DNA from: Naegleria gruberi
Lineage: Eukaryota
DNA length: 64,000 nt
Assembly (NCBI GenBank): GCA_000004985.1
Contig: GG738871.1
Reading direction: 5' to 3' (one strand)
How positions within the stretch are numbered: the stretch's first letter is position 1; each line of letters opens with the position of its first letter. Positions 61 to 63,981 of this stretch are shown one piece after another. The position numbers were made by a program, and so were the translations under genes. The notes under the pieces are model-generated. The model was not told where the DNA came from. It saw only the letters and a program-made list of their open reading frames with translations, and searched no databases.

Positions 61-576
61 ATGTCATCATTAAAAGAAGGACATCTTTCCAACGATTCTT
101 TACATCTCATCGTTACTAATTGTCAAGAACCAAAACATAATTCATTCAGAACTACACTACAAAAGAAAGAAGGTGATGAAGTTTTTAAATGCGAAATTGA
201 TGAAAGTACTGATCAACAAACTTACTCAGTGACTGCCCTGTTGTATTTACATAATGATGGAACATTTGATTATTCTTTGGATGGATATTCTGCTAATGAT
301 GAAATGGGTTCTACAATTACAAATTCATTCTTTGGGGTGTGGAATCTAGTGGACAATTCTCTAACTCTTACTCCCGTCTACAAACACAAATATCTGAGTG
401 AAGGTTGGGAATTGATAGACAACAAATATATTGAAATGCATACAGTGAATACCAATAATTATGATGGCAATTCTATTTTGGCATGGAATCCAAGTAACTA
501 CACAGACACTATTACCTGTTTTTTATATAAGGATAAGAAAGAAGTTGCCACTTTCAAAAAGTTCAGTCAACCATAA
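61..576 (+). CDS. hypothetical protein (171 aa), no recognisable motif
   Basis: Complete ATG..TAA ORF, long for a 30% GC background where stops are frequent; no family recognised by eye. Confidence 0.3.
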   Translation: MSSLKEGHLSNDSLHLIVTNCQEPKHNSFRTTLQKKEGDEVFKCEIDESTDQQTYSVTALLYLHNDGTFDYSLDGYSANDEMGSTITNSFFGVWNLVDNSLTLTPVYKHKYLSEGWELIDNKYIEMHTVNTNNYDGNSILAWNPSNYTDTITCFLYKDKKEVATFKKFSQP

Positions 577-621
577 CTCTCAATATCCAAGTGCCTAAAA
601 GTGGATTAACAAAACTGAAAT

Positions 622-1275: not shown

Positions 1276-2904
1276 GTGAGAATGACTAGTATTTTGGAAG
1301 AATCAAGTAAATTGTTTAAGGAACGTAAATATGATGAATGTATTGAATTGATAAGAGATTATTATCCTTCCTTGAGCAGTCCTGAAGATTATAAGAATAC
1401 AGCCTTGTTGTACATGACCAAGGGTTTATGTTCCTTTAATAAGGTTGCAATGAATGGAGGATGTTCTTCCGATGATCATGTGGATTATTTGCTTACTTCC
1501 ATTGGCGATTTTCAACAAGTTGTGGATTACTTTGGTACTTACTGGGAAGAGTCCATGAAGGGAGAAGAATTTGAAACCTTGGTAGGAAAAACTGGTTTTA
1601 TGGACGCTTTTATATGTAAAATTAAGGCTGGATACTTGATCGGAAAGGCCTTGTTGGAAGCTTATAATTTTAATAATGAAATTGATATTGGTAAAGGGAT
1701 TCATGCCACTTCTCTCACTATTGACCATTTGAACAAGTTGAAGGAGGCTCAAGAGCACATCACCAAGGATAGAAAGGCTCCATTTGAGTTGATTGCCCAG
1801 TGTTATTTAATCAAGGGACAATGCCAAACAATCTGGGGTCTTTATCTTGAGGCTGGAGAATCTCTTAATACTTATTTAAAGATCTTGGAAGATGGAAATG
1901 ATTTGAGTGAGGAAAAGAAACAATCTGGGTTAGCAATCGGATATCATCATATGGGTAATTTGAATTATCTTACAGGAAATAATGAAATTGCCATCCAATA
2001 TTATTCCAAATCAATTGATAGATGCGAGAATTTAATGATGATTGACTTTAAACAACACCATGTTGATCATGTTATTGAATCACATTTAAAGAGAGCCAAG
2101 GTATTAGTAAGCTTTATTCTTGAACTCGCTGACCAATCAACTGTCGATGAGGAAAGAATTCATGAATGCTCTGAAATGGTTTGTGAGGATTATGAGTTTG
2201 TCATTAGAAATAGAAAGGAGAAGAACCATCTTTACAAGCTCAAATATTACAGATTCATTTTGAACATGATTGAAAAGCTTGGACACTACATATCTGAGGA
2301 AGACTTGGCACACTTTTATGAAAGAGCCTACTCTTTAATTAATGACTGCTTGGAATACTATGAGAACAATAGCAAATTATATCAAGATTTGGCCAAGTGT
2401 ACCTCCAAGATTGAAGATGAAGACAATTTGGACACAGCTCTGGAACTTTATGACACAAGTATCAAACTAATGACTCTTAATAATCGTGAACTTTCTTTAC
2501 CAATGAAAAAGTTTATTGCTCGTTCCCATTTCGAAAGGGGTGTAATTTATGTACAAAAGGAACAATTAGAAAAGGCTCTCCACGAATTTGATTTGTCGCT
2601 AAATTTCTCTCCAACCTTCCCAGATTCTCTCTATAATAGAGGTATTGTGAAAACTCATTTAGGACAATTAGAAAGTGCCAATGATGATTTTAAAAAGGCT
2701 ACCAACTTCAACCACCAGGATTTGGAAGCATACAGACAGTGGTTTCTCAATCTCAGAAAGGCAGGCAGCAAGAAGGAAGCAGAAAAGATTGCTGAGCATG
2801 TCTTTGAAAAACTTTCCAATGATGAAACACCTCTCGATTTTTACCTTGCAAAGATTGAATCTGGAGAATTAGCAATTGAGCAATCCAAGATTAGAGAATT
2901 GTAA
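1276..2904 (+). CDS. TPR-repeat protein (542 aa)
   Basis: Complete ORF; C-terminal tandem 34-aa TPR-like repeats (..FERGVIYVQKEQLEKALHEFDLSLNFSPTFPDSLYNRGIVKTHLGQLESANDDFKKA..). Confidence 0.6.
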   Translation: MRMTSILEESSKLFKERKYDECIELIRDYYPSLSSPEDYKNTALLYMTKGLCSFNKVAMNGGCSSDDHVDYLLTSIGDFQQVVDYFGTYWEESMKGEEFETLVGKTGFMDAFICKIKAGYLIGKALLEAYNFNNEIDIGKGIHATSLTIDHLNKLKEAQEHITKDRKAPFELIAQCYLIKGQCQTIWGLYLEAGESLNTYLKILEDGNDLSEEKKQSGLAIGYHHMGNLNYLTGNNEIAIQYYSKSIDRCENLMMIDFKQHHVDHVIESHLKRAKVLVSFILELADQSTVDEERIHECSEMVCEDYEFVIRNRKEKNHLYKLKYYRFILNMIEKLGHYISEEDLAHFYERAYSLINDCLEYYENNSKLYQDLAKCTSKIEDEDNLDTALELYDTSIKLMTLNNRELSLPMKKFIARSHFERGVIYVQKEQLEKALHEFDLSLNFSPTFPDSLYNRGIVKTHLGQLESANDDFKKATNFNHQDLEAYRQWFLNLRKAGSKKEAEKIAEHVFEKLSNDETPLDFYLAKIESGELAIEQSKIREL

Positions 2905-57411: not shown

Positions 57412-59441
57412 TTAAATAATTTGAAATTCCTTTTCAATGGTTGATTGAGTGGCTACTCTAAATTCTAATGGTCCATTGTAGAGTGATAATCTGTCTGTGT
57501 CCCAATCGAAAAATGCAGGTCCACAATTATCTCCATAACTGTTTAGTTCAATAATCTTTACAATTTCCTTTTCTAGATCAATGACTACAAAGTCAATACA
57601 ACAATCATCGAGAGGTATCTTGTGTTTGACCTTTTCAAAATAATTCAAGATAATTCTCTTCATGGATTGATATTCTTCTATTGGAACATTTGGAAAGAAA
57701 GATGAACTGAAATATTGAGTCATGGCTGTCATTTTCTTGTTTCTGATAAAAGTTCTGACTTCTCTCCAAATAGGAATGTCAATCCACTCCCTTTGTTCAT
57801 AAAATATGATTGTACATGATTCATTTCTAATATATTCTTATCAATTACTTACCTGATCACAATTTGAATGGGCATTGATTCATTACTTTGATGTTGAACT
57901 GCATCACTTCCCAATGAAACTGATAAATCAACATGAGATCTATAACTAATAGTCATTAATTTGATAAAATCCTCTCCTGATTTGACTTTCATACATTTCT
58001 GAGCACATATTTGAGTTATGGCCGATTGATACTTTTCATGTTTGAGTGAAAGTCGATCTCCACTTGAATCTACCTCCAAGGAATATAGCTCACTCCATTG
58101 TTTGACCATCTCCTCTACCATGGCATCATATTGATTGACTTTGAAAGCAGCATCCTTTGGAGAACGATGTGAAAGTTTAACAAAGGCTTCTCTATTTGGA
58201 AATTCACTCATCACTTGATTGATTCTGTTGGCTAATCCTTTCAAAATTTCTTCCTCTTCACTCTGTGTTTGTGATCCAAAGAACCATCTTTCGTATTCCT
58301 TTACAATGGCTTGAGCTTCTCCATAAGAAATTGAAAGAAAACGTGTTTTGAAAGTTTCCTCACCCAACTTGTCCATCCAAGTATTGCAATCAGTGAGATC
58401 GACATATAAAGTCAAACTAGCATTAATTAATTGCTTCTCTGGGATTATTTTGAACCATTCCAAATCATTTTCCTTAATTTCCAATGTAGATCCATCTTGC
58501 AAACATGGGAAATCTGATAATTTCTTCAACAACTCGAATACAGCATCTCTTAATAGGTAATGATATGAAAAACAGAATAATAAAGTGATTGGAAGAAATT
58601 GTTCTACTTGGAAGAGAAGGAATTTCTTCAATGAGCATAAATCTAAATGTCTAATTCTGAAAACTTCATTGAAAAACTTGAAGAGATTTACAACTCTTGT
58701 CAATTTCTCCAATTGATTGTTATCAGATTGACAATAATAAATTTCCAAGCATTCTTCCATAATTTTGTGAAATAAAAGTGGTTTTTCAATCCTATTACAT
58801 CTGGATATACGGAAAATATGCTTAAATTCACTTTCTCCTTCATAAATATTAAATAAATCTTGCAATATTTCAATTAAACTATTTTCATCATGATTCGAAT
58901 TTTCAATCTTTTCAATTACTTGTTCCAAATTATCCAAACAATTTCCTAACTTGCTTTCGATCTTCCATCTTCTTTCAATAGGTATCTTTCTCATAATACT
59001 TTCATTCTTCATCTCAATTTCATCTTCAGCAAGATTCGAATCGTCATCATTACTAGTGAGTGATGGAAATAATTCAAAATCTGAATTTTCATTCCGATGA
59101 TCCAAATCTTGTTGATCATTTATCAATTTACGAAAATCATCAATTAATTCACTCCAAAATTGTGAATCTTCCGATACTTGTTTTCCCAACTTTTCATTCA
59201 ATGCTTGTTTACAATCTTGTGCAAGATTTGTAATTTTGTAATTGTTATTGCCATCATCATCGTCAGCATCTTTATCAGTGGAGAGAAGAAATACTTTTGA
59301 AAAGAGAGAGCACATTAAACTCTGAGAATTAGGACTCATACGCAAATAGTCCAATACGGTGAGTAGATTTTCAGACATTTTTATTTTGTGCTTCAAATTC
59401 GAAAATGAAGTTGGAAAATTGAGATGCACTTGAAGGATCAA
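57412..59441 (-). CDS. CDC123: Cdc123-family (D123, ATP-grasp-like) protein with long N-terminal extension; 2 exons (57853..59441 or start 59378, and 57412..57742), intron 57743..57852 (110 nt)
   Basis: Motifs REAFVKLSHRSPKDA and DFVVIDLEKEIVKIIELNSYGDNCGPAFFDWDTD match Cdc123 ATP-grasp core. Upstream ORF ends ATC AG|GTAAGT; acceptor TTTTATCAG|A restores frame into ..R NKKMTAMTQYF.. Confidence 0.55.
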
Positions 59442-59547: not shown

Positions 59548-60771
59548 ATGAACAAGTACAAATCGATTCTTTCCTCCTCATCAACATTAAGCAATTCCAC
59601 ACCAATGATGATGATGACGAAACACCTCCCGAGAGCCACATTATTTTCCCTGAAAAAATCTTCTCCGAATCATGAAGAATTAAATTTCGGAATTTCAATG
59701 ATGATGATGAAGAAGAATACAAGACGATGCTTTTCCTCCTCATTAAACAATCAAAAAGAAACAAAATCCAATAGTGATGATGATTATAAAATTCAATATG
59801 AAAAATACACTAAAGATTTAGCCCAACGAGTGGTTGATATTTTCCATGCACAAAAGAGTTGTCAATTAACAAGTTTTGGAGGATCGGAGAGTACTAGTGT
59901 TGAACATTTGAAAACTTCAATCATTCCGATGGCTATTGTTAAAAAGACAGTCTCTGATATTTATTTATCGGAATTTAAGAAGAAACCAAAGAAGGAACAA
60001 GAAGAACATTTGGAAGGAATTAAATATTATGAGGATATTTCAGGATTTGAAGATGATGGATATAATCTTAAACATTTTGATATTTATATTTGCATGCCTG
60101 ATGGAAGTGATCATCTTGTTAATATTTCCAATGCTCCAGAGCCATTGCAAATCAGAAGAAAATTACTCCCAACAGAGACAGCCATTGTCAGTATTGCAAC
60201 TGGTCACAGCGATCAGATTATGAGCTCACTATTCCAGAGAGTGGGTAGAATGCCTCCACGTGCCACAATTTCTGCCACTCTTGAAACTATTCCAAAAGAG
60301 TCTGAGGGATTTCATCAAATTTGGACTGAACAATTTAGAATGCATCCAAATGTTTCGATTCAAATGAAGAAGAATAGTGCCAATATTTTCAGAGTGAGAG
60401 TTGTCAAGAGTGCCTTCTTTTTGGATGAAGGATCAGCCATGAAAGAAATTCAAGATATGGATCATTTGAGTAGGGAAGTTATTCCAGATTCACTTTCTGC
60501 ATCAGCCAATATCAAATCAATTATTAGAAGATTGAATGGAAATCCAGAGAGAGTTGCAGCCATTTTGGAGAAGGGTTTTGGAATTCATTTGAGTGACTTT
60601 TTCGTTTATGAACTCAATTCATATTGCATGAGAATTATGGGCAGAGATGTGAGCTATGGCAATGGAAAGAAGGAACCATCACAATTTTCAACCTATGAAT
60701 TGGACCATGGTTATAAAATTTCAACCGAGGCCATGTTTAATCAATACCTTACCAAATTCCATAATGCATAA
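59548..60771 (+). CDS. hypothetical protein (407 aa), N-terminus resembles mitochondrial presequence
   Basis: Complete ORF; Ser/Met/Lys-rich N-terminus; no domain recognised. Confidence 0.35.
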   Translation: MNKYKSILSSSSTLSNSTPMMMMTKHLPRATLFSLKKSSPNHEELNFGISMMMMKKNTRRCFSSSLNNQKETKSNSDDDYKIQYEKYTKDLAQRVVDIFHAQKSCQLTSFGGSESTSVEHLKTSIIPMAIVKKTVSDIYLSEFKKKPKKEQEEHLEGIKYYEDISGFEDDGYNLKHFDIYICMPDGSDHLVNISNAPEPLQIRRKLLPTETAIVSIATGHSDQIMSSLFQRVGRMPPRATISATLETIPKESEGFHQIWTEQFRMHPNVSIQMKKNSANIFRVRVVKSAFFLDEGSAMKEIQDMDHLSREVIPDSLSASANIKSIIRRLNGNPERVAAILEKGFGIHLSDFFVYELNSYCMRIMGRDVSYGNGKKEPSQFSTYELDHGYKISTEAMFNQYLTKFHNA

Positions 60772-60958: not shown

Positions 60959-61390
60959 TTAGAATCTCAATGGGGAGAAGAATTCCTTCATAGCCTTACC
61001 ACCCTTCAAGTACTTAGCTTCAAACTTCTTCTTGATGGCCTTCTTGGCTTCCTTCTTTTGTGTAGCATCTTCAGAGGTCTTATCAGCAATCAAACCCTTG
61101 AAATCCATGTCCAAAGTGTGTCTAGTTGGCATCATATGTTGGTAGTTGACAGACTTGATGAAAACAGTGAGCTTGCTTCTTCTCTTCATGGCAGTCAATG
61201 ACATAGACTTGGTGACGGACTTTGGATATTGGTCAATACCGACAACAACAGCGTGTGGGAAGGACTTATCGTTGGCAGCATCATCGAAGTTCTTGGCAAT
61301 AACAGCCTTTCTGCCGGCATATCTACCTTGCAAGATGATGACGATTTTACCTGGCTTCAAAAACTTGGTTTGTTGGACTTCCTTTGCCAT
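60959..61390 (-). CDS. RPL27: 60S ribosomal protein L27e
   Basis: MAKEVQQTKFLKPGKIVIILQGRYAGRKAVIAKNFDD...YNYNHMMPTR...FFSPLRF-stop aligns along its whole length with human RPL27 ([31 protein letters not shown]...FFQKLRF). Confidence 0.9.
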   Translation of the reverse strand: MAKEVQQTKFLKPGKIVIILQGRYAGRKAVIAKNFDDAANDKSFPHAVVVGIDQYPKSVTKSMSLTAMKRRSKLTVFIKSVNYQHMMPTRHTLDMDFKGLIADKTSEDATQKKEAKKAIKKKFEAKYLKGGKAMKEFFSPLRF

Positions 61391-61658
61391 TTCGTGTTTT
61401 GGATTTTTTTTTCGAACAAATTTTTAGTTAACTAGCGATCCCCAACTTTACAACAAAGATAAAAATGAGCCATTTTTAACTCAATGCAAGGAAAACAACA
61501 AAACAAGCACCATGAAGTGACTTTGCTTCTTCTCCACCAACATTCCGAGAAGGTTTGACTCACCATAACATCTTCATCTTAACAAGTCTCTCACTACCAA
61601 TAGGTCTTCTTGTTGTTCTTGTTCATCTAATATTGATTGAAGGCAAAGAAAGAAAAAA

Positions 61659-62003
61659 ATGTTCAACCCTGGAAATCTTGGAAAATTCCTTCACTTGTTT
61701 GGATCAACTAGAATTGGAAAAATTGGTGATAAACTCTCTCTTCTTAAAGGACAAGGTGAAGCTGGTGGTTTGGTTCGTGTTACTATGAGTGGACTCGGAA
61801 AGATTGAAAAACTCGAACTTGACGACAAGCTCTCCGGAAAGAGTTTGGAAACAATTGAAGACCTTGTTGTGAGTGCTTGCAACTCTGCAAAGGAAGATTT
61901 GGAAAGAAAGACCAATGAAGAAATGATGAATTTGAGATCTGACCCAGAACTCCTTGCCGTCTTTGCTAGAATGTTCAACAAGGGACCAAATGAAACTAAT
62001 TAA
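61659..62003 (+). CDS. YbaB/EbfC-family nucleoid-associated protein homolog (114 aa)
   Basis: MFNPGNLGKFLHLF...GEAGGGLVRVTMSGLGKIEKLELDDKL...SLETIEDLVVSACNSAKEDLERK... aligns along its whole length with E. coli YbaB (MFGKGGLGNLMKQAQQMQ...[31 protein letters not shown]...LEDLVAAAFNDAARRIEE). Confidence 0.6.
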   Translation: MFNPGNLGKFLHLFGSTRIGKIGDKLSLLKGQGEAGGLVRVTMSGLGKIEKLELDDKLSGKSLETIEDLVVSACNSAKEDLERKTNEEMMNLRSDPELLAVFARMFNKGPNETN

Positions 62004-63333
62004 ATTATTATTAACTTTGAAAGTCATCATTGTCATGCTCTCCGAGATTTTAGGATAATTCTCTCTCATACTCAACAACAACAATAATAGTACTCTACTC
62101 GTTGTGGATTTTCTACATTAATCAGCATTATTATTCAAATAATTAATTTGGATGTAATTTAATAAAACAACAAAAACTTTAAAATTCATTTGTTTTTATT
62201 GAATATAAATAAACATAATATTAAAAGTTTTTTCTCCCTTCCGATTCAAATCATTGAATACTAGTATTATATTATATAGGATGTATTCTTATACTCCCAA
62301 ATTGTTAATTAATTAACCAAACACCGAATGACTAAGAACAAGTGCAAAATCGACTTCTTTAAAGCACATCTTCTCCTAGATGAATATTCACTTCATCATT
62401 ATCGATGAAGTATCACCACCATCAAAATTTGTCTCTAATATTTTCACATTGTAAGCAATATTCTCTTTGGTTGGCTAGAAATATTCTTCAACCCTTTAAA
62501 ACTGCAAACACTTTGTTGAGGAAGAGAACAACAAAATCAAAAAAAATGTTTCCTCTTCCACTTCTCTATTCATAATAGAATTTGTTCATTAGCACAAAGT
62601 TGTATGTATTGTACTGTTTCGACGGGATGAAGGCTGGTTGCGCGAAGGTACTTGGTTGATGTTGCTCTCTTGGTTGAATGGTTATCAAAGGCTTGATATT
62701 GTTCTGTTATTGCTGGTTCTTTCAATGATGATCAACGTTTAAATGACGAGTCTGAAGATAATGCGAGGACAAAAAAACATTTGGCTTTTATATCTGATTA
62801 TGAACCAAACAGACAATGTCTAGTTGATGATGGTTATTTGATTAGAGTGTGCTCTACTCGATATCTTTAACAATCAGTCCATCCCGTCAAGAATTTCTCG
62901 AATACTAACTACATATTTTAGAATTGAACCTTTTTGAAAAGGTAAATAGTTCTTGCTTGAGAGGGATGGTGTGTTCAGAATACTTGTTTTGAATATCAAG
63001 TTTCGGCTTGTTTGAATTTTAATGATGATTAAACAATTGATGAGGCATTTATCCGACGCCCAAATAACTGGAGACAAACCTTTTGCTACCTTAACTTTCT
63101 GATGATTCAACAATTCAAAGCTTGTTGTTTGGACTTTTGTTCTGAATAGCCATCCCTGACAATATGTTTACTTACCATTTACTGTTTTTTAATTTAATAT
63201 TTAACAATTTTAGAATAAAGAAAATGAGTTGAAATGTAAATTTATATTGCTGTTATGTGTCTTAAAATCATTAATCTTGTGTTATTCAAACACTTAGAAA
63301 TGTACTATTTACATCTTATTGCAGGGGAACAAT

Positions 63334-63981
63334 TCAATTTACTAATTGGTTATTCTTCTTGACCTTACTCAAAGTGCATTTCAAAATGAAATCAGTATCA
63401 TTTCGCAAAGATTCATCGACAAATTCAATAGCATCCTCACATTGATGAATTGCCTCCCAAACCACATCTCTATCTTTTTTCAGTTCACCCCCTACATATC
63501 TCAATGCCATTCCATCTTGTTTTACAGCTACTAAGGCCAGCTCCTTATCATTCTGGAGAACATATCGAGCATATCGAATCATTGAACCATTTTGTTTAAC
63601 TCCTTCCATGAACACTTCCTTGTCTTCCAACATGTCTCTGAAGAGAAATCCCAAAGTGAGTGGATTTTTCCTTACCAATTTCAATACAATTTCTCTATCT
63701 TGTAAAATGTGATCCTTTCTATCTTCACGAATGCTCCCATTATAAGGAATACACCCCAAAGCATTGATATTCAAATCAATGGCTTCCTCAAGGAATGAAT
63801 AATCTTTGATAAGTTCAGGATCAGCAGACGAAATTGAGTAATAATCCAACCTCATTGCTGTCAACATGATTTGTGCATCAGCTTTAAATTCCTGTCCAAT
63901 GTAAAAACAGGATCCACGTACTTGACTAACCAGTTCCAGAATGAACTCCCTATTTTTCATCAATTCTTCATCAACCCTCAA
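63334..63981 (-). CDS. DUF4116-repeat protein (possibly 5'-truncated by window edge)
   Basis: Repeats of the type AV.QNG.AL.YA...L..D.E.VL.AV (..NGSMIRYARYVLQNDKELALVAVKQDGMALRYVGGELKKDRDVVWEAI..). Confidence 0.4.
   Translation of the reverse strand: MRVDEELMKNREFILELVSQVRGSCFYIGQEFKADAQIMLTAMRLDYYSISSADPELIKDYSFLEEAIDLNINALGCIPYNGSIREDRKDHILQDREIVLKLVRKNPLTLGFLFRDMLEDKEVFMEGVKQNGSMIRYARYVLQNDKELALVAVKQDGMALRYVGGELKKDRDVVWEAIHQCEDAIEFVDESLRNDTDFILKCTLSKVKKNNQLVN

Follow-up and report, generated by a model that had tools for sequence, protein, structure and literature searches.

What is a gene of the bacterial YbaB/EbfC family doing among eukaryotic genes in the nuclear genome of Naegleria gruberi, and where does its product act? 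The gene lies in a 64,000-nucleotide stretch of contig GG738871.1 (hereafter the window), whose GC content of about 34% fits N. gruberi. An uninterrupted ORF runs on the plus strand from ATG to TAA, exactly from 61659 to 62003, and forms a complete, single-exon CDS of 114 codons followed by the stop. Its product is 100% identical to the N. gruberi protein XP_002676518.1 (EFC43774.1, NAEGRDRAFT_79937, UniProt D2VHB6), whose database title is 'predicted protein'. The ORF is a real, expressed and strongly conserved bacterial-type YbaB/EbfC gene of the N. gruberi nuclear genome.

A first-pass annotation of this DNA had proposed an end-to-end alignment with YbaB and membership of PF02575, and both were recovered. 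The 114-aa product matched Pfam PF02575 (YbaB_DNA_bd) with E=6.7e-13 and 49.1 bits (gathering cutoff 25.5), and its residues 1-100 aligned end to end with residues 1-103 of E. coli YbaB (PDB 1pug; E=1.6e-8). All members of the eukaryotic clade described below scored above the same gathering cutoff, with 50.8-75.1 bits. On the NCBIfam equivalog TIGR00103 the 114-aa protein reached 41.7 bits, under the cutoff of 49.45, which points to a divergent member of the family for which the function of the bacterial protein is not assured. The conserved core beta1-beta2-beta3-alpha2 (residues 30-93; 61746..61937, plus strand) carries the family-invariant residues G33, G36, G37, V39, D68, L69, A73 and N75 (62 sequences) and the core motif G-E-x-G-x-G-L-V ... 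E-D-L-V-x-x-A-x-N. The alpha1/beta1/beta2/beta3/alpha2 fold of the family is present, and the AF2 model (mean pLDDT 79.8; residues 30-90 above 90) has alpha1, three strands and a long alpha2. The motifs that had been picked out by eye are there, except that the helix reads ETIEDLVVSACNSAKEDLE (ETIEDLVV) and not LEDLVV.

No transit-peptide extension had been seen on the ORF, and upstream stops in orthologous loci together with the mass spectrometry coverage bear this out; the accompanying reservation that an upstream exon could not be excluded can be dropped. Across 14 orthologous loci an in-frame stop lies 1-30 codons 5' of the start (6 codons in N. gruberi) and no upstream Met is conserved, the sole exception being the environmental contig L015. 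Its sister L016, whose protein is identical, has a stop 14 codons upstream, and the L015 extension is thus not conserved. The start of the L002 gene reads TAA AAA ATG: the stop is one codon upstream, no AG separates it from the ATG, and splicing of an upstream exon in frame is therefore impossible there. The 96-aa JGI call P0004 begins at the wrong Met; with the genuine ATG at L004:3997 it starts with MFNPGN. Since peptides cover 89.5% of the 114 residues, no more than 12 can have gone unobserved. Tryptic peptides 1-9 and 10-18 at the N-terminus come to 18 residues, and therefore at least one of them was observed. This excludes a long cleaved presequence and argues against the cleavage of more than 12 residues.

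Both ends of the protein are remodelled. Helix alpha1 (residues 1-32, MFNPGNLGKFLHLFGSTRIGKIGDKLSLLKGQ; 61659..61754, plus strand) keeps the bacterial length and is basic, Ser/Thr-rich and Gly-rich. The segment preceding the conserved G-E-x-G motif was compared between 13 sequences of the eukaryotic clade and 50 bacterial sequences. Its length is about 32 aa in both sets, with a net charge of +3.6 in the clade versus +0.1 in bacteria, 1.0 versus 4.0 acidic residues, 3.9 versus 1.0 Ser plus Thr, and 1.2 versus 5.5 Gln. In the AF2 model alpha1 is kinked at G15-T17 with low confidence (pLDDT 51-57). At the other end, a clade-specific amphipathic helix (AF2 helix at residues 96-107, PELLAVFARMFN; 61944..61979, plus strand), recognised from the model, the alignment and a comparison of tails, stands in place of the LPPGxKxPF tail of bacterial and plant proteins. 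That tail, scored by its PPG, occurs in 43 of the 50 bacterial sequences and in none of 11 from the eukaryotic clade. The median pI is higher as well, at 6.7 for the clade and 5.0 for bacteria. The composition of alpha1 is presequence-like, and we propose that this helix may act as an uncleaved matrix-targeting signal on a protein that would keep the dimer core.

The product was found in the set of N. gruberi mitochondrial proteins published by Horvathova et al. 2021, where XP_002676518.1 is listed on Sheet 1 of Supplementary Data 2 (PMC8134430). This sheet holds 946 putative mitochondrial proteins of the 4198 detected, assigned by PCA co-fractionation with 376 markers over three OptiPrep sub-fractions (PMC8134430). 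The protein was identified by 13 unique peptides with 89.5% coverage (PMC8134430), and the possibility that the ORF is unexpressed, which the first-pass annotation had kept in view, is thereby removed. Its log2 LFQ rose from 25.6 through 27.8 to 29.4 towards the mitochondria-richest fraction, as it did for HslU, Mgm101 and the HMG-box protein; the entry was placed in category 18 and is undiscussed in the article text (PMC8134430). The 114-aa product co-purifies with mitochondria, in a single co-fractionation dataset, some of whose assignments may be false positives. By this co-purification it is an old bacterial relic at work in the mitochondrion, and neither a recent transfer nor a contamination. 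Of the options raised at first reading, that of an organelle factor is right, the organelle being the mitochondrion and not a plastid. The authors' predictors call no presequence for XP_002676518.1 (TargetP mitochondrial 33 versus other 55; PSORT II mitochondrial 13; PMC8134430), an observation that stands against a mitochondrial location. In the available portions of the Andalucia and diplonemid mitoproteome papers, no YbaB entry was found in the text.

In the densest fraction the LFQ was 29.4 for the 12.5-kDa YbaB protein, 29.9 for the 29.7-kDa HMG-box protein and 27.3-29.3 for six mitoribosomal proteins, four of which have listed masses (17-40 kDa). Per unit mass, with LFQ/mass as a crude proxy, the YbaB protein looks about 3-9 times as abundant as the mitoribosomal proteins and near the HMG-box nucleoid protein. 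Bacterial YbaB/EbfC is a tweezer-like DNA-binding dimer, and every one tested bound DNA (PMC9610160). The reading that we favour, tentatively and at somewhat less than an even chance, is that of an abundant, nucleic-acid-binding dimer associated with the mitochondrial nucleoid. It is preferred to a role at the ribosome or the insertase because of the higher LFQ per unit mass than ribosomal proteins and because the contacts of the chloroplast homolog STIC2 are not specifically kept (see below). After synthesis in the cytosol the protein would enter the mitochondrion with no extension to be cleaved off, the recoded alpha1 (basic, hydroxylated, acid-poor and amphipathic) being most likely the uncleaved matrix-targeting signal. 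In the matrix it would probably form a beta-sheet-mediated dimer with two protruding helical arms that binds nucleic acid, and its most likely target would be the bacterial-like mitochondrial DNA of about 50 kb, on which it would serve as an architectural protein beside the HMG-box protein.

Some features of the protein sit less well with a nucleoid role. Of the two arms implicated in the DNA binding of EbfC, helix alpha1 is kinked here and rich in Gly, with a low-confidence model, and the C-terminal tail of bacteria has been lost. STIC2, the sole functionally studied eukaryotic homolog, and the structurally related kinetoplastid proteins mS60, mS58 and mS50 all belong with the ribosome and not with the nucleoid.

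A close rival, which we regard as distinctly possible, is that of a mitochondrial ribosome-associated factor. Such a protein could be a STIC2-like helper of co-translational insertion working with mtFfh/mtFtsY and Oxa1, or a structural or heterodimeric partner within the mitoribosomal small subunit like mS60/mS58, possibly paired with the second YbaB-domain protein of N. gruberi, XP_002682435.1. STIC2 binds ribosome-nascent-chain complexes and the C-termini of Alb3/Alb4, together with cpSRP54 (PMC11480477), and a bacterial-type SRP is retained in Naegleria mitochondria (PMC8321541). The STIC2 contacts with motif III of Alb3/Alb4, G111, E112, K115 and E131, map to a gap, G37, R40 and D56 in the Naegleria protein, for which the partner would be Oxa1 and not Alb4. 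No clear STIC2-specific signature is seen at these positions, G37 being the residue that bacteria have, R40 being found family-wide and D56 varying within the clade. A ribosomal role is also at odds with the lack of relation between the Naegleria clade and the plastid type (0% bootstrap; 5-23 bits versus 75-89 bits; see below), with the absence of the extensions of about 200 aa of mS58/mS60, and with the abundance per unit mass, which seems about 3-9 times that of the mitoribosomal proteins.

The kinetoplastid mitoribosomal proteins mS60, mS58 and mS50 have the YbaB fold in common. The YbaB profile matched three mS60 orthologs with E 0.03-0.15, and the N-terminal domain of mS60 reciprocally matched H. 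influenzae and E. coli YbaB with E 0.007-0.008; on PF02575 this domain scored 24.0-27.4 bits against the gathering cutoff of 25.5. In two mitoribosome papers that cover mS60 we found no mention of YbaB. The direct match between mS60 and profile A3 was weak (E 0.47-2), which again does not favour an mS60-like role for the 114-aa protein. XP_002682435.1, a protein of 215 aa, scored 30.7 bits on PF02575; its N-terminus is MTS-like, it is listed in the same mitochondrial proteome (PMC8134430), and it aligned weakly with mS60 over 95 residues (E 0.29). It is a better candidate for an mS60 ortholog than the 114-aa protein. A wider scenario, speculative and in our view unlikely, would make the 114-aa protein the near-unaltered YbaB of the proteobacterial mitochondrial ancestor, retained by Discoba and imported after alpha1 had become an uncleaved presequence, and would have the same ancestral gene give rise, by duplication and extension, to XP_002682435.1 and to mS60, mS58 and mS50. 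If this were true, organellar YbaBs would ancestrally have been factors coupling ribosome and nucleoid (compare chloroplast STIC2), and 'kinetoplastid-specific' mitoribosomal proteins would derive from a bacterial nucleoid protein.

The setting of the gene bears on an explanation outside the organelle. Close by, as had been noted, are the genes of RPL27e and a DUF4116 protein. The cytosolic ribosomal protein RPL27e (eL27; PF01777, E=8.6e-25, plus a KOW domain) is encoded at 60959..61390 on the minus strand, and the DUF4116 gene, identified from its ORF and Pfam, lies at 63334..63981 on the minus strand. The start codons of RPL27e and YbaB are 268 bp apart. The divergent intergenic region between them (268 bp, 61391..61658) is a putative bidirectional promoter; it ends in a conserved GAAAAAA-ATG start context and contains, in an alignment of five such regions, a conserved box TTTACAACAAAG (61447..61458) that reads TTTACAATGAAA in the other Naegleria-type loci. 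On the far side of RPL27e, at 59548..60771 on the plus strand, lies 'gene X', the third conserved member of the block, whose 407-aa product has no Pfam or PDB match and belongs to no known family. This product does not appear in the portion of the proteome table covered, from which 344 rows were cut, so its absence carries no weight. The bacterial context dnaX-ybaB-recR is absent at the locus, the neighbours (RPL27e, gene X and DUF4116) being eukaryotic.

The head-to-head pair of RPL27e and YbaB is kept in N. lovaniensis, in Willaertia and in the environmental contigs L002, L004, L005, L006 and L015. The order gene X(+), RPL27e(-), YbaB(+) is found in N. gruberi, N. lovaniensis, Willaertia and L004; L002, which starts inside an upstream plus-strand gene, has RPL27e(-) and YbaB(+). 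L005 joins gene X, RPL27e and YbaB to SPT2(-). A GLUCM-like gene (-) precedes RPL27e(-) and YbaB in L006 and L015, YbaB is followed by SPT2(-) in L005, L006, L010 and L016, and in L011 gene X(+) comes immediately upstream of YbaB(+), both genes having one orientation. By alignment, gene X is 49-56% identical in Naegleria/Willaertia and about 26% in L011/L005. Between Naegleria and L006/L015, YbaB is 29-37% identical and RPL27e itself only 55-62%, so the synteny block must be very old.

This pairing with the gene of a cytosolic ribosomal protein, kept across very deep divergence, is what a cytosolic or nuclear protein co-regulated with RPL27e might show, for example one whose target is the DNA of the nucleus or the circular rDNA plasmid of the Naegleria nucleolus, in which case the proteome entry would be a fractionation artefact. 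The missing N-terminal extension and the predictors, which lean to 'other' or cytosol, agree with it, and so does the gradient enrichment of 3.8 log2 units, at the low end of the markers looked at (4.0-5.6; PMC8134430). We nevertheless consider it improbable: the authors assigned the protein to the mitochondrial cluster among 4198 proteins (PMC8134430), the N-terminal composition has moved towards presequence character in 13 of 13 clade members, and the paralog, like every other organellar YbaB homolog, resides in an organelle.

The orthologs of N. lovaniensis, N. fowleri and Willaertia magna are 68-79% identical to the N. gruberi protein, and UniProt automatically names those of N. lovaniensis and N. 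fowleri 'Nucleoid-associated protein'. A single-sequence, word-indexed search gave 5 hits only, and an exhaustive profile search of 1.84 billion representatives just three matches below 1e-10. With the clade profile, Willaertia and seven environmental sequences scored 97-146 bits, above a bacterial plateau of at most 92 bits. Sub-clades were recovered with 98-100% bootstrap in sequence-only trees. The monophyly of all 13 eukaryotic sequences was unstable: one alignment gave it 54% support and a second 0-5%, and a set of 243 taxa showed no clean split. The common origin therefore rests on the synteny chain. From synteny we also infer that the contigs L005-L016 are heterolobosean-related. For the orthologs of Naegleria and Willaertia, dN/dS values are 0.06-0.22, and dS is saturated or nearly so. 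The comparison of base composition that had been suggested gave a GC3 of 0.33 for YbaB, like that of its non-ribosomal neighbours (0.28-0.34). Synteny, selection and GC3 together indicate a very long vertical inheritance of the gene, both within the Naegleria/Willaertia lineage and in related uncultured eukaryotes.

The phylogeny and profile searches proposed at first reading for finding the donor pointed to Proteobacteria, and left the alpha and gamma classes unseparated. The best bacterial match of a Naegleria-only profile was P0013, an alphaproteobacterial protein 78% identical to one of a Kiloniellaceae MAG, with neighbours that are nearly all of Rhodospirillales/Kiloniellales type. The clade-wide profile leaned slightly towards Alteromonadales-type gammaproteobacteria; labelled alpha and gamma sequences could not be told apart by score, the Naegleria profile giving maxima of 58 (alpha) and 51 bits (gamma) and the profile of the clade 85 and 89 bits, the sets compared not having been sampled without bias. 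On this sequence evidence the origin is proteobacterial, with alpha and gamma undistinguished, and a mitochondrial (alphaproteobacterial) ancestry would be compatible with the data.

The family had been described as 'essentially restricted' to plastids in eukaryotes. This is too strong, given the second N. gruberi YbaB-domain protein and the match of kinetoplastid mS60 to PF02575. It is true that the eukaryotic members described so far are chloroplast proteins only (PMC9610160), and this distribution would suggest that the YbaB is of plastid type and came from an alga or cyanobacterium, by endosymbiotic or eukaryote-to-eukaryote transfer. This origin was rejected and is effectively refuted. 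The plant and charophyte sequences compared are authentic database entries, fished with a plant STIC2 bait, and the conclusions rest on these entries. On the clade HMMs their chloroplast YbaBs scored 5-23 bits versus 42-89 bits for Proteobacteria, plants grouped with the Naegleria clade in 0% of 900 bootstraps, and the mean distance of the clade was 2.8 to plants versus 1.6-1.7 to bacteria. Plants moreover retain the Gln-rich alpha1 and the MPPGL tail, both lost in the clade. A recent bacterial transfer (an endosymbiont had been suggested as donor), contamination of the assembly or a chance ORF without expression, for which the bacterial family assignment and nothing more speaks, is refuted by contiguity with eukaryotic genes (as had been argued against contamination), by orthologs at the same position in four named species, by host-like GC3 and strong purifying selection, by the 13 peptides, and by a best bacterial identity of about 30-37%, no close relative having been found in single-protein scans of 185,579 prokaryotic species genomes.

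The existence of the gene and its proteomic detection are already public but uninterpreted. A full-text literature search returned no paper that connects YbaB to Naegleria or to the nucleoids of mitochondria, and none citing the accessions, and a 2022 review of the family gives plant chloroplast proteins as its only eukaryotic members (PMC9610160); on these two grounds, no earlier description of a mitochondrial YbaB/EbfC protein was found. New are the remodelled termini, the lack of any extension, the depth of the synteny, the rejection of a plastid origin and the structural link to kinetoplastid mitoribosomal proteins. Should a role as mitochondrial nucleoid or ribosome factor be confirmed, the protein would be a further bacterial relic in heterolobosean mitochondria beside T2SS, SRP and TAT, and a natural case of a structural helix recoded as an uncleaved import signal. 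The fold relationship with mS60/mS58/mS50 would then suggest a source of some 'lineage-specific' kinetoplastid mitoribosomal proteins. The Naegleria YbaB is also a small, tractable protein for the question of DNA factor versus ribosome factor, which is unsettled even in bacteria and chloroplasts. The family is missing from humans and N. fowleri has an ortholog, which makes the protein parasite-specific in principle.

Compared with bacterial YbaB/EbfC (E. coli YbaB 1pug, H. influenzae 1j8b and B. burgdorferi EbfC), the Naegleria protein is encoded by a eukaryotic nuclear gene outside any dnaX-ybaB-recR context and is mitochondrial. Its alpha1 is recoded, being basic and rich in Ser, Thr and Gly, with few Gln and acidic residues, its C-terminus is an amphipathic helix in place of the LPPGxKxPF tail, its pI is higher (about 6-8 versus about 5), and it falls under the TIGR00103 cutoff. 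mS60, like mS58 and mS50, is different again: these are proteins of 230-1100 aa with large extensions and highly divergent sequence, and integral subunits of the ribosome, whereas the Naegleria 114-aa protein has the canonical size and is much closer to bacterial YbaB.

As a patchy relic of bacterial type in Naegleria mitochondria, absent from most eukaryotes and found in the same proteome, the protein resembles the miT2SS Gsp proteins, mtFfh/mtFtsY and TAT. Those systems have been followed into several supergroups of eukaryotes, and an ancestral status has been argued for them, whereas YbaB is so far known only from Naegleria, Willaertia and environmental eukaryotes, and its affinity may be alphaproteobacterial or gammaproteobacterial. 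A precedent for the proposed mode of import is given by mitochondrial Hsp10 (chaperonin 10) and rhodanese, small matrix proteins with an uncleaved N-terminal amphipathic import segment within the mature fold; their fold and function are unrelated, and the likeness is one of analogy only. Plant chloroplast STIC2 (At2g24020 and At4g30620, titled 'nucleoid-associated protein, chloroplastic') differs in its cleavable transit peptide of about 48 aa, in having kept the bacterial alpha1 and the MPPGL tail, in its separate lineage, with 0% bootstrap for a grouping with the Naegleria clade, and in the contact residue E112, which is Gly in the Naegleria protein. Like the Naegleria protein, it is a nuclear-encoded YbaB homolog in an organelle of bacterial origin, and the setting is similar too, the organelle in each case keeping a bacterial-type SRP and a YidC/Oxa1/Alb3 insertase.

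The gene for the cytosolic ribosomal protein eL27 (RPL27e), which lies head-to-head with the gene for the 114-aa YbaB protein, has no intron in N. gruberi. RPL27e is interrupted by an intron on two contigs carrying orthologous YbaB loci, that of Willaertia (L012, 4423..4905, minus strand), where the raw translation runs into stops past MVKGEVQQTKL, and L005 (371..931, minus strand, with the C-terminal exon at 371..577). These introns independently support a eukaryotic source for both contigs. The alignment of the RPL27e/YbaB intergenic regions (A7) revealed two conserved blocks in Naegleria-type loci: a GTGTTTTGGCGTA-T(8) block adjoining the RPL27e start (61391..61420) and a TTTACAAYRRAA box (61447..61458). 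Both blocks may belong to a bidirectional promoter.

The third member of the synteny block, gene X (59548..60771, plus strand), was located on L001 (3895..5106), L012 (3280..4365), L004 (1711..2988), L011 (1..1224), and L005 (2..319). Searches of Pfam and PDB returned no relatives of the gene X protein, in whose C-terminus an RLN...L..F motif is invariant. The synteny of this gene of about 400 codons with YbaB is kept among very divergent eukaryotes. On L011, gene X is found immediately 5' of YbaB on the same strand and its product has an MTS-like N-terminus, MTRLASRSTSSFRPFHRAAW. Gene X may be functionally tied to YbaB or may itself be mitochondrial. For a 530-aa ORF (57849..59441, minus strand), the sole match was a weak, sub-threshold one to HVSL (PF09749; E 0.005).

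No ORF was found in the 1.3-kb stretch 3' of YbaB (62004..63333). A C/D-box snoRNA-like match to Rfam snR75 (62723..62799, plus strand) scored 28.6 bits, below the gathering score of 40 (E 0.0033), and a second TGATGA...CTGA unit was spotted by eye around 63020..63110. The stretch is possibly a snoRNA cluster.

On the environmental contig L015, an in-frame upstream ATG (ORF 1652..2188, plus strand) would add 61 residues to YbaB. The sister contig L016 encodes an identical YbaB protein but has a stop 14 codons upstream, and the N-terminal extension is probably spurious.

A second N. gruberi YbaB-domain protein, XP_002682435.1 (215 aa; PF02575, 30.7 bits), is encoded outside the window; it has a predicted presequence and is listed in the same mitochondrial proteome as the 114-aa YbaB. 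The kinetoplastid mitoribosomal small-subunit protein mS60 of T. cruzi aligned with it over 95 residues (E 0.29). XP_002682435.1 is a candidate mS60 ortholog or a candidate heterodimer partner of the 114-aa YbaB.
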